Positions 46,286 through 50,545 of a DNA stretch of 64,000 nt are shown here, one piece after another. The position numbers and the translations under genes are program-made. Positions within the stretch are counted from its first letter, which is position 1, and each line of letters starts with the position of its first letter. Under the pieces are notes generated by a model. It was not told the origin of the DNA, did no database searches, and was given only the letters and a program-made list of their open reading frames with translations. Location of the stretch: the NCBI GenBank assembly GCA_964016885.1, contig OZ024743.1:310186001-310250000 (forward strand), given 5' to 3'. This DNA comes from Eledone cirrhosa (taxonomy: Eukaryota).

Positions 46286-46464
46286 TGTCTGACCCTCTAC
46301 CGATAATTATATATATATATAACATATGTGTAATATATATATATATAATATATATATATACAATATATATATAATATATATATATATATATATATATATA
46401 TATATATATAAAATTAATAAAATAATGAATAAACAAAGAAACAGTTCCTTATATTAAACAAATT

Positions 46465-46604
46465 CATCATTTTACGATCGTTTCTAGGATATTTATGTGT
46501 TTGAGTTGGTATGCATATTCTATAGATCTATGTACAATATTTATACAAACTATCAGAGGGAATATACATACCTACACATATATATGCTGTCTTCAGAAAT
46601 AATG
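46465..46604 (-). ncRNA. Type I HHR with ~105-nt stem II
   Basis: cattattt CTGAAGA ...ggtatgtatattc/gaatatgcatacc... GAAAC gatc GTA aaatgatg. Confidence 0.75.
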
Positions 46605-47276
46605 ATATTTGTTTATTGAAAAAAACAAAGATTTAATACAATAGGTATGTTTGGGAACAGGTTTTGAATTGACCAATAGAGAGATAGTGAGGGTCAAGAT
46701 AGTAATATAGTAGTAGAAGAACCTTAAATCATGGGTAGAGGAAGGTAGATTTTAGTTTTGGATGGAAAAGAATATTATGAATTAAGGATTATTTTAGGGA
46801 AGAAAATAGGTCGTATGCTGCACTCAGAAATAATTTTATTTGTTCATTGAATAAAACCAACAAAGATCTAATATATTCTGTCTGTTTGGTAAAATGTTTA
46901 GAATTAACCAATAGAAAGTTAATCATTGGCCAAATGGTAAAATAGTAGTAATTGAAGCTTATTTTAGGGGTGAAAATAGGTCAGGTCAGTAAAAGGTATA
47001 CGAACAGTTGTTGTTATAAAATAGTAATGCCAATGCAAATATCTAAGGAGACTAAAGTTTTACGATAAGAGTCTTAGTGAAAAAAATACATCTATGAAAA
47101 TAATATAAATTATTTTAATTGATGGGTTTATTTATATTGATAAAATTATACTAATACATATAGATATGATAAATAAGAGTTAGATGCAGTTGAAAAGTGC
47201 TGCTAAAGATGAGGGGAAATTAAGAGAATATAAAAATAATATATATATATACATATATATATATATATATATATAT

Positions 47277-47473
47277 ACGTTATTCCGGGTTGAATCGGAG
47301 GTAACCACAGTAAGTAAGGTACTCAATACATAGCAGAGTATAACAGTTTTAATATAGATGAGATTCTACAGGACTAGAACTGTTTCATTCATTTGAAATC
47401 ATCAGGAAACTCCTGATGATTTCAAATGAATGAAACAGTTATAGTCCTGTAGAATCTCATCTATATTAAAACT
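47277..47473. mobile_element. Family D fold-back mini-element
   Basis: Palindrome centred near 47409 with back-to-back HHRs. Confidence 0.85.
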
Positions 47474-48020
47474 ATATATATATATATATATATACACATA
47501 CACACACACACACACACACACACACATATATATATATATATATATACACACACATATATATATATATATATATATATATATATATATATATATATATATA
47601 TATATATATATATATATATATACACACATATATATATATATACACGCATATATACATATATACATATATATATACACACACATACACACTTACATATACA
47701 TATAATTATTGGGGGGAGGGATTAAATTTATTAGTGAGAAATAATAAATATATATAGATTTCAAGGAACATAGAGTCATAACCTGAAGTTAAAGCATTAT
47801 ATATGTTTACTTAATGGTATCAGTTTTAGGAAATGATAGTTGTAAGAAGGAAAGTAAAATTTTGTAGTTCATCAGTAGTAGAATATTAATTATAGGTTAA
47901 CTAAATTAAAAATAGTTTATATATTAATTTCTAAAGTGTATATTAATTAGGTTTATAATATTTAAATGTTTTTCTCAGTTTATGATTCCACGATATTATT
48001 AATTCCTGTCGCGGAATAAG

Positions 48021-48210
48021 GGAGGTGGATTGGCAGTATCGGCAGAGGGTCGGGCGCCATGCTTTGAAGCATATAATTACCTCCCTTTATGATCTGAGTT
48101 CAAATCCCGCCGAGGTTAACTTTACCTTTCATCCTTACGGGGTCGATAAAATAAAGTACCAGTAATGCACTGGGATAATTGCTGGCCTGGTGCCAAAAGT
48201 AGAAACAATT
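48021..48210 (+). mobile_element. Full-length SINE with 18-bp target-site duplication
   Basis: attattaattcctgtcgc at 47995-48012 and 48208-48225; empty site visible in the sister copy near 39450-39490. Confidence 0.9.
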
Positions 48211-48734
48211 ATTAATTCCTGTCGCTTATTTAATAGGATATCCTTAGATTTCATTATTTCAAAAAGTTCTTGGGAACATAATCTACTATTTTGATAAGGG
48301 GTGGCCCTTTTGAGCACACTCCAGGTCATAATCCATATTCCTCTTTCTATAACTATTAATTATTTCAGCTAGAGATGTTGTATTAGCTAGTGCGGCATTT
48401 TTAAAACTATGTTTGTGGGTATTAAATCTTACCTTAAATTTGTTAGAGGTAGCTCCTATATATGAATAAATTGAGTCCTTAGTGTTAACTTTACATTTAT
48501 ATACTATGTTATTAACAAGGCAATTTCCTTTTAATGGACAGTTTGCCTTGTTTCTACAGTTACAACTTTTCGTGAATCCTGTATCTGAAGAGATATTATG
48601 GTTAGTTTGATGTACTGGTGGTATACTCATGGTTTTTTTTACATTTATATGCATTATAGGCACTTATATTTTGTTTTATGTTTTTGGTTGTTGAGTAAGA
48701 GAATTTAACCGTTGATCAACGGTTAAATTCTCCT

Positions 48735-50545
48735 GGCGTTGGTGCAAATATGTTTATATTGTATAATAACATAATCATATTTATAGTTCGGTATATCCCT
48801 GTATATAGTTTTGTGCAAATATGTTTATAATGTATAATAACATAATCATAATTATAGTTCGGTATCACCCTATATATAGTTTGTACAAATATATTTATAT
48901 TGTATAATAACATAATCATAATTAGAGTTCGGTCTTCCCTAGAAGGTAGAACTAATGTATTGATTTAATATAATATATGAACAAATAATAACAAATAATC
49001 ATTTATAGTCCTCTTATTATGATCAATGCACATAGCTCTGATTCATATGATTCATCGAGCGCTTGCCACACATATCGGACGTTGATTTTTGTTAATTCCT
49101 GAGCTGAAAACGATTCTCGCTAATTTATATTTGTATTAATCTCCAGAGTCTAGCTATTGAGCAGTTAATTTTATTGATTTTTTCAGTTACTTATATTGAC
49201 TGTTGAATAGCTCTGTTATATTTAACCATTCTGTCGAGAGCTTTATTCGATTTGTGATATTTTGCATTCTCGCAATAATACACAACTGAATCATTCGCTT
49301 AATAGAGGTGTTACCTCCCTTGATGAATCCCACGAGGGGTCAGTAATAGCCACACTATCTATAGCATCTTGGAGCAAAACCCGTTAATAACACGACTGCC
49401 TTGTTCATCATCTCACCAGAAGCCCAACATTCTTTATGTAGGCGGACAGTACCTGATTTGGAGTCGCAGAAACCAATACTGGATTTTACCATCAGTCCAG
49501 GGTCCGGGAAAGTATCAACACATATATTTTTATTGTTTGACCCGAATTACTTGGTCGTTTTCTTTTGGCTGTGCGGATGATATGTTTAACCATCATCTCA
49601 GTGTGTTTGGCCCTTAACGTATGTTGTAGCTCTGATTCATATGATTCATCGAGCGCTTGCCACACATATCGGACGTCGTTGATTTTAGTTAATTCCTGAG
49701 CTGAAAACGATTCTCGCTAATTTATATTTATATATAACTGAAAACTCTGGTTTAATTATTATACTTTAGACACTATAACTATTTAACAATACATTCCTTG
49801 ATAGTTATAACAGTAAATACTTCATAAACTATACATACGGAAAATGTTGACACTGTTACAAGTAATTTGGTTAAAGATTACCTTTGTGTGAATATTGAAC
49901 AGTATATATTTTTCTTTCGCGGGCCTAGTAAATCCTTTAAATTTGTTTTCATAAAACTTTGAATTTTAGAAATTTAACACATTTATAAAATTTATAAAAT
50001 TTATAAAATTAATACAAATAACCATCAACTTTTAAACCTAAAATGTTGATTCTTTACCCTAAAATAACATAAATTGAATATTTTGAAATTTAACTGCCAA
50101 CGCGTTTATATGTGTCCGAAGAAAGTTTGTGTATAAATTACTCGCCTTTATCTCTCCCTCTCTTTAATTAACTATCAGTTGCATTCTCAAGCTAAAAATT
50201 AAAAAAAAATTATAACTCCAGATACGTCTTGCAGTAGTATTCCAGACTTTAAAATCTCTATAGCTGTTACATTAAAGCAATGTTTCTCTTACTCACACCC
50301 TCTCTATTGATTCTATTACGTTTTCGCATGTTCTCATTATTAGGGTATAAATATTGAGTTTTCTCTTAAGTAAATCACGACCTTGATTAAATCTTAACCA
50401 TCTAACATGTCAGAGTATGTCATCTATCATTTTATTTTATCTGACGAGGACGTACTGTTGAACCTGATTCAAGTAGTTCTGAATTATGTATAATAAAATT
50501 TAATTGATCAAAAGAATATCTATTTTGTTAATATTTGAATTAATA
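48735..50545 (+). mobile_element. Family B copy with HHR at 50434-50499 (GAAA mutated to GAAT)
   Basis: Reverse complement of 2148-3720. Confidence 0.75.
49033..49729. mobile_element. ~700-bp insert with ~100-bp terminal redundancy (594-bp period)
   Basis: 49033-49131 repeats 49627-49729; absent from the family B copy near 3100, which has only a short TA run there. Confidence 0.8.

Follow-up and report, generated by a model that had tools for sequence, protein, structure and literature searches.

We analyzed a window of 64,000 nucleotides from Eledone cirrhosa (contig OZ024743.1 of assembly GCA_964016885.1, positions 310,186,001 to 310,250,000 of the forward strand; all coordinates below are those of the window), focusing on a pair of Penelope-like elements (PLEs), here called C and B, that face each other at 46411-50545. 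The window is animal-type DNA with a GC content of 31%, dense in PLEs of several families; microsatellites and sequences that recur in the window itself account for at least 41,441 of its 64,000 bases. The pair and its flanks comprise the following features.

46308-46410: (TA)n tract on the left, which is probably the target at the 3' end of C
46411-48715, minus strand: element C, a 5'-truncated PLE assigned to the Hydra clade, with an open reading frame (ORF) remnant and about 1.4 kb of native 3' untranslated region (UTR) that holds an internal microsatellite
46464-46605, minus strand: type I hammerhead of C from the descriptor scan, with its CUGAAGA core at 46596, GAAA and a short palindromic stem III
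47278-47472: small foldback of family E, a later insertion in the internal microsatellite of C, with 63-bp arms and a 3-nt spacer
48021-48217, plus strand: short interspersed element (SINE), later inserted into C and flanked by a target-site duplication of about 17 bp; its read depth is very high
48240-48715, minus strand: ORF remnant of C, with the end of the reverse transcriptase (RT) thumb, a CxCx5C linker and, at the C terminus, an endonuclease of GIY-YIG type; two frameshifts
48699-48732: perfect loopless 34-bp palindrome centered on GATC, in which 48716-48732 is the inverted copy of the last 17 bp of C
48733-48741, plus strand: junction filler of about 9 bp, without a match to the tandem unit of B
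48742-50545, plus strand: element B, from a second family and 5'-truncated; what is left is non-coding 3' sequence that begins in 2.8 copies of a 71-bp unit
49031-49730: element Z, a multi-copy element of 700 bp, later inserted where B has a short TA run; its 104-bp direct repeats are 98% alike
50434-50499, plus strand: type I hammerhead of B, with its core at 50441 and GAAT in place of the GAAA of its relative
50546-51286: right complex (TA)n tract at the 3' end of B

The structure is real: two 5'-truncated PLEs of different families stand head-to-head across a templated 17-bp inverted copy, in opposite orientation and with both outer 3' ends pointing outward. The original prediction had described most of this arrangement correctly. 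Two families, C on the minus and B on the plus strand, are borne out by the separate relative of B and by its own depth profile in run X4; the ORF remnant does end at 48715, where C had been said to be truncated; the copying back of its last 17 bp holds, as 34 bp at 48699-48732 are exact and loopless with unpaired flanking bases; and descriptor hits place a hammerhead-bearing 3' end at the outer (TA)n in both halves, the core of B being mutated. The orientation and family of the plus-strand half also stand, but B does not follow the palindrome directly, as the filler lies between them. Three later insertions within the span had been overlooked: the SINE and the small foldback in C, and the 700-bp element in B. 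The only unusual feature of the locus is that the partner comes from another family, all other ingredients having been published already.

The junction palindrome is far beyond chance. It has the only loopless arm of at least 10 bp in the microsatellite-masked window (the next longest has 9 bp), and none of 100 order-2 Markov simulations produced arms longer than 11 bp. The final 17 bp of the C ORF, which read STVKFS on the minus strand, make up the left arm; the right arm translates as FNR. The break of C falls within the conserved motif FNRxT[VI]K. The window holds four other copies of this motif. In each of them, the FNR codons pair with the T[VI]K codons at six to eight of nine bases and the Arg codon ends in GA; native C therefore probably read GATC at the center of the present palindrome. 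Pairing in the palindrome reaches five bases past the motif. Moreover, 91 of the 92 relatives with a parsable motif carry N seven residues before SYS, a position at which the window has an additional in-frame stop codon, and it has E where relatives mostly have I or L. Plain native coding sequence was rejected as an account of the palindrome on the extra in-frame stop, the wrong spacing and the five further paired bases. Because of that stop, a spacing unlike that of 91 of 92 relatives and the pairing past the motif, the right arm is judged, from its sequence, to be a templated copy of C made at a hairpin-prone site and not native sequence. A contig from run X2, 90% identical to the family, has an alignment that ends at 48709, with 54 more letters unaligned. 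Elsewhere in the window (16962-16990), the FNRNTIK codons within an uninterrupted Hydra ORF form a natural hairpin, in which a 1-nt frameshift extends the arms from 9 to 12 bp. The last palindrome base together with the filler (48732-48741) is identical over 10 bp to 55182-55191 of a third family (0.01 expected by shuffling), a post hoc match that may be chance.

The name Naiad, which the original prediction gave to C, is wrong. Hydra PLEs combine a C-terminal endonuclease, the motifs CxCX5C and DKT, hammerheads and (TA)n targets, whereas Naiads have an N-terminal endonuclease followed by a CxC domain and the RT, and no canonical hammerhead (Craig et al. 2021, PMC8557442). Because of its C-terminal endonuclease, its CxCx5C linker motif and its canonical hammerhead, C is classed here as a Hydra-clade PLE and not as a Naiad. 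It resembles the Naiads described in PMC8557442 in (TA)n preference and inverted 5'-truncated partners and is their opposite in endonuclease position and hammerhead. With the Hydra-clade elements of the same source it shares the C-terminal endonuclease, CxCx5C, the FNRxTVKxSYS thumb motif, the 3' hammerhead and (TA)n; it differs from them in an inverted partner of another family, in the length of its 3' UTR (about 1.4 kb) and in the 105-nt stem II of its hammerhead. An inverted 5'-truncated partner as such is the standard PLE arrangement (PMC8557442).

Specifically, the domains of C follow the order thumb motif, linker, endonuclease and 3' UTR, which puts the endonuclease C-terminal to the RT. 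The ORF remnant reads STVKFSYS...CNCRNKANCP and stops at 48715. Its endonuclease matches residues 575-653 of an RT-first protein of 722 residues (P0038; E 1e-15), and Pfam gave no match for the ORF fragment. The linker CNCRNKANC belongs to a motif, CxCx5CP, that is present in 99 of 151 related proteins (150 found via the neighboring family A and one via C) and also in the Hydra alignment of PMC8557442. A search of longer proteins with family A returned no match; DKT occurs in 15 of the 18 longest relatives. The N-terminal part of C is lost and its RT core is not in the window; related window families show RLRWR and SDKT (Hydra motifs RWK and DKT). At the other end, the 3' terminus at 46411 abuts (TA)n. 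The predicted hammerhead, 62 nt from the 3' end as in other families, has a stem I of 9 bp, a stem II hairpin of 105 nt and a predicted cleavage site after 46473; any hammerhead hit with a stem I of at least 9 bp arose in two of 60 Markov simulations. It was detected neither by Rfam at gathering score, nor by a first core scan with stem II limited to 45 nt, nor by an end profile of the A/B type, because its stem II is 105 nt long. A degenerate repeat of the 5' part of this hammerhead lies upstream at 46814-46961.

A second copy of C helps to delimit the element and its insertions. Identity between C and the copy at 39448-40281 is 92-95%, and the last 68 bp of C recur, 97% identical, at 39373-39441; the segment 46411-47022 was assigned to C by contiguity and by the same pairing of ends with the C copy at 39373-39441. 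The SINE is not in the C copy at 39448-39481, nor is the 47278-47472 foldback, which has a 67-nt extension on its left arm only, in the C copy at 39769-40076. The SINE may be of a cephalopod type.

Over 763 aligned columns of its 3' part, B shares 88% identity with a minus-strand relative at 2241-3760, the aligned copy being 2241-3110, and no ORF is left in either. An end profile of the family A type built without B detected B at E 8.6e-4 and the B relative at E 5e-6, and the 3' end of B is accordingly assigned, from the profile match, to the local Hydra type at (TA)n. The B hammerhead, with its altered GAAT, is probably inactive. In run X4, contig depth climbs from about 1,000 at the 5' end of B to 258,000 at its 3' end (50545), which is the profile of a 5'-truncating element. 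We considered B as the 5' region of C itself in reverse and rejected this, as B has its own 3' end, its own depth gradient and a separate relative. Element Z likewise has its own depth profile and is not in the B relative at 3111-3116; no ORF, hammerhead or inverted partner was found for it.

Head-to-head pairs are the local norm. Fifteen inverted junctions were chosen by eye from a self-comparison of the window, of which 13 are same-family pairs with a usable alignment, a count that omits the misaligned pair at 39373 and the C-B junction itself. The spacers of these 13 pairs measure 0, 2, 3, 5, 7, 40, 95, 106, 147, 151, 358, 625 and 1218 nt, so that five have at most 7 nt. Small near-loopless foldbacks lie in (TA)n at 47278-47472, 54526-54710, 62406-62600 and 12093-12428, with spacers of 2-7 nt, and the one at 62503 is centered on CCGG. 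In another same-family inverted pair, at 43633-43961, the arms are not nested, the left one having an extension and the right one a hammerhead spacer. Neither arm can therefore be a pure copy of the other, and two RNA-templated arms are needed. A second cross-family candidate was also found, in which the B relative (minus strand, 2148-3760), carrying a tail of 93 nt, stands opposite a truncated copy of family A on the plus strand from 4077; within this region (2148-10650), the family A copy is followed by a near-full-length Hydra element at 6950-10640. At 18352-18425, what looked like a tail of the right arm matches another family and was dropped as evidence.

Several further repeats of the window belong to this setting. 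The C(-) arm at 39237-40880 carries a probable 136-nt tail at its 3' end. A retrozyme-like tandem family of 315-319 bp forms direct and inverted arrays that end at (TA)n (40299-40884, 43968-45122 and 43100-43311), and its hammerhead core is the variant UUGAUAA (U3-A8 type). At 20480-28201, a PLE of another clade shows the textbook arrangement of an inverted truncated copy, a pseudo-long terminal repeat, and a near-intact body with an Asn/Thr-rich repeat; the inverted arm and the body are 99-100% identical.

Reads from four of ten runs (all but X3, X5-X7, X9 and X10) were compared with 47700-50540, an output dominated by the SINE; X2 and X3 have small word shares with the window. The comparison listed 40 of 447 differences, 15 of 296 joints and 24 of 137,592 pieces, and the statements drawn from it hold among those listed. 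Both halves carry private substitutions (among them 48334 and 48589 in C; 48798, 49792, 50171, 50379 and 50424 in B) and later insertions. Among the 40 of 447 differences no large age gap between the halves was seen, which is a weak test. In run X4, the depth on the B side of the junction is about one-thirtieth of that on the C side. The window letter is absent from X4 at six listed sites (48589, 48798, 49323, 49687, 49792 and 50171), and this run therefore provides evidence neither that its sample holds the locus nor of an empty site. The reads of a restriction-site-associated DNA (RAD) run break at AATT sites, the enzyme being inferred from read ends; AATT occurs in both palindrome arms, and this run therefore cannot span the junction. 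Outside the window, a pattern scan of viral contigs gave zero matches. Seven metagenome loci from the pattern scan were set aside as chance matches, none with tblastn similarity to these elements.

The best reading of the pair, which we consider about evenly balanced between right and wrong, is that it arose in one two-ended insertion event with a copy-back of 17 nt. An RT-endonuclease of the Hydra clade would have nicked both strands of a (TA)n target; one target end would then have copied about 2 kb of C RNA and the other about 1.1 kb of B RNA. Synthesis of C would have halted at the FNRxTVK codons, at a natural imperfect hairpin that probably included GATC. The last 17 nt would have been copied again in reverse, either by a snap-back of the C complementary DNA or by a jump of the B-side strand onto the end of the C template, annealing through GATC; the latter would account for the absence of a loop. 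The ends would have been joined through the filler of about 9 nt, and the SINE, the E foldback and Z would have been inserted afterwards. The original prediction had likewise invoked priming at the two ends by different RNAs together with self-priming. Two-ended priming of this kind with a short copy-back fits all testable features, but the structure alone is not decisive.

A number of observations weigh against a single two-ended event. A loopless palindrome is impossible by simple hairpin self-priming without an extra step, and a 17-bp arm is equally expected as the remnant of a same-family C(-)/C(+) foldback whose right arm was lost. No target-site duplication around the pair is readable, both flanks being microsatellite, and no read or contig crosses the junction among those listed. 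A contig of run X1 matches C at 254 of 256 letters, and the 5' part of B has zero depth in that run; this pattern could mean that the two families were active at different times, and their histories accordingly vary from one species to another. The second cross-family candidate, between the B relative and family A, leaves 317 bases unassigned and lacks a palindrome at its junction, and copy-back hairpins at the junctions near 4077 and 39445 did not exceed shuffles. At 39373-40880, a C(-)/C(+) pair is followed by the 315-bp tandem family and then by (TA)n, and at 41646-42600 a Hydra ORF remnant runs in the same direction into the 3' end of a different PLE family, the join ending at (TA)n. With these two joins in view, an arm may plausibly have been replaced later. 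Finally, Z and the element at 29198-31909 are without an inverted partner, and two-ended priming is therefore not obligatory.

The rival that survives best, which we regard as unlikely though well short of negligible, starts from an ordinary foldback. A loopless C(-)/C(+) would have been inserted first, after which either the palindrome broke near its tip or B was inserted at the distal (TA)n with its 5' end joining near the center, and all but 17 bp of the right arm was lost. The same layout with a longer C(+) arm is in fact present at 39373-40880, where the arm runs for 830 bp before a switch through a 17-bp tandem duplication (40272-40306). Near-loopless foldbacks of the window have short arms (53-148 bp), pairs with arms longer than 200 bp all have spacers of at least 95 nt, and long perfect palindromes are unstable, all of which counts in its favor. 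On the other hand, it requires two events, deletions in long palindromes usually take out the center, and no age gap was seen among the differences listed.

Slightly less probable still is that C and B were independent neighbors joined by host repair. They would have been inserted separately, or C beside an older B, and a deletion would have taken away the 5' part of each, while a polymerase of repair or replication would have left a short inverted templated insertion at the natural quasi-palindrome. Opposite-orientation neighbors must be common in so repeat-dense a window, the junction has filler and a hairpin-prone motif, the 1-nt loss at 16962-16990 shows how arms can lengthen from 9 to 12 bp, and an inter-strand template switch yields loopless palindromes. 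However, this leaves unexplained the near-looplessness of five of the 13 local pairs, and also why junction palindromes are typical of PLE inverted pairs (PMC3846280).

Two further origins are very improbable, each about as much as the other. PLEs are able to carry flanking sequence in trans (PMC3846280), and the C-B block might have been copied as a unit from a composite source by a read-through RNA primed at the 3' end of B, but depth in X4 falls about 30-fold across the junction with no joint or loose end there among those listed, and the question would merely be moved to the source locus. An assembly chimera, made from a long read that folded back or by a wrong join of repeats, would fit a region that is almost all repeats and the lack of a junction-spanning record among those listed, but fold-back reads give long inverted duplications, unlike a 17-bp arm with filler, and both halves end properly at hammerhead 3' ends. 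Published elements also have the same type of junction (PMC3846280).

Parts of the two-ended event have precedents. Inverted junctions of Adineta vaga Penelope elements have palindromes of 18 bp and 38 bp that were interpreted as self-priming (Arkhipova et al. 2013, PMC3846280). These pairs are head-to-head with junction palindromes, like C-B, but they are same-family and several have target-site duplications, whereas C-B is cross-family. In vitro, the Poseidon protein PAc, a predicted dimer, nicks and extends both target strands; it prefers AT-rich DNA, and two start sites account for optional tails (Frangieh et al. 2024, PMC11167929). In contrast to C-B, that work concerned a single RNA species and another clade. 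LINE-1 insertions in opposite orientation from two RNAs have been described in cells (PMC11702581) and in genomes (PMC13174262). In these twin-priming chimeras two RNAs are copied from opposite ends of a break and joined, with template switches of the second RT, but they belong to another retrotransposon class, they are primed at poly(A), and target-site duplications, none of which is readable at C-B, prove them to be single events. Our literature search returned no report of cross-family head-to-head PLE pairs, in a body of sources that held little from subscription journals and whose figures and supplements may hold examples.

The origin of the inverted partner of PLEs is unsettled between self-priming on an antisense template, proposed in 2013, and the two-strand target priming seen in vitro in 2024. 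A cross-family pair discriminates between them, since pure self-priming cannot yield an arm from another family. A single locus cannot prove the two-ended model, and the value of this one is as a pointer to a genome-wide count. Should pairs of this kind be single events, priming takes place separately at each target end, and the enzyme can also use RNA other than its own. More tentatively, and with a chance clearly below even, PLE integration in general may be a two-RNA, two-ended process, in which a single complex would take up RNAs from different families by way of the hammerhead 3' ends that they have in common, and a short copy-back would make the join, the FNRxTVK codons serving as a built-in stall-and-fold site. 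If this is true, cross-family head-to-head pairs in (TA)n-rich genomes would preserve, in a form that can be counted, traces of the second half of the PLE transposition cycle, which is still unsolved.

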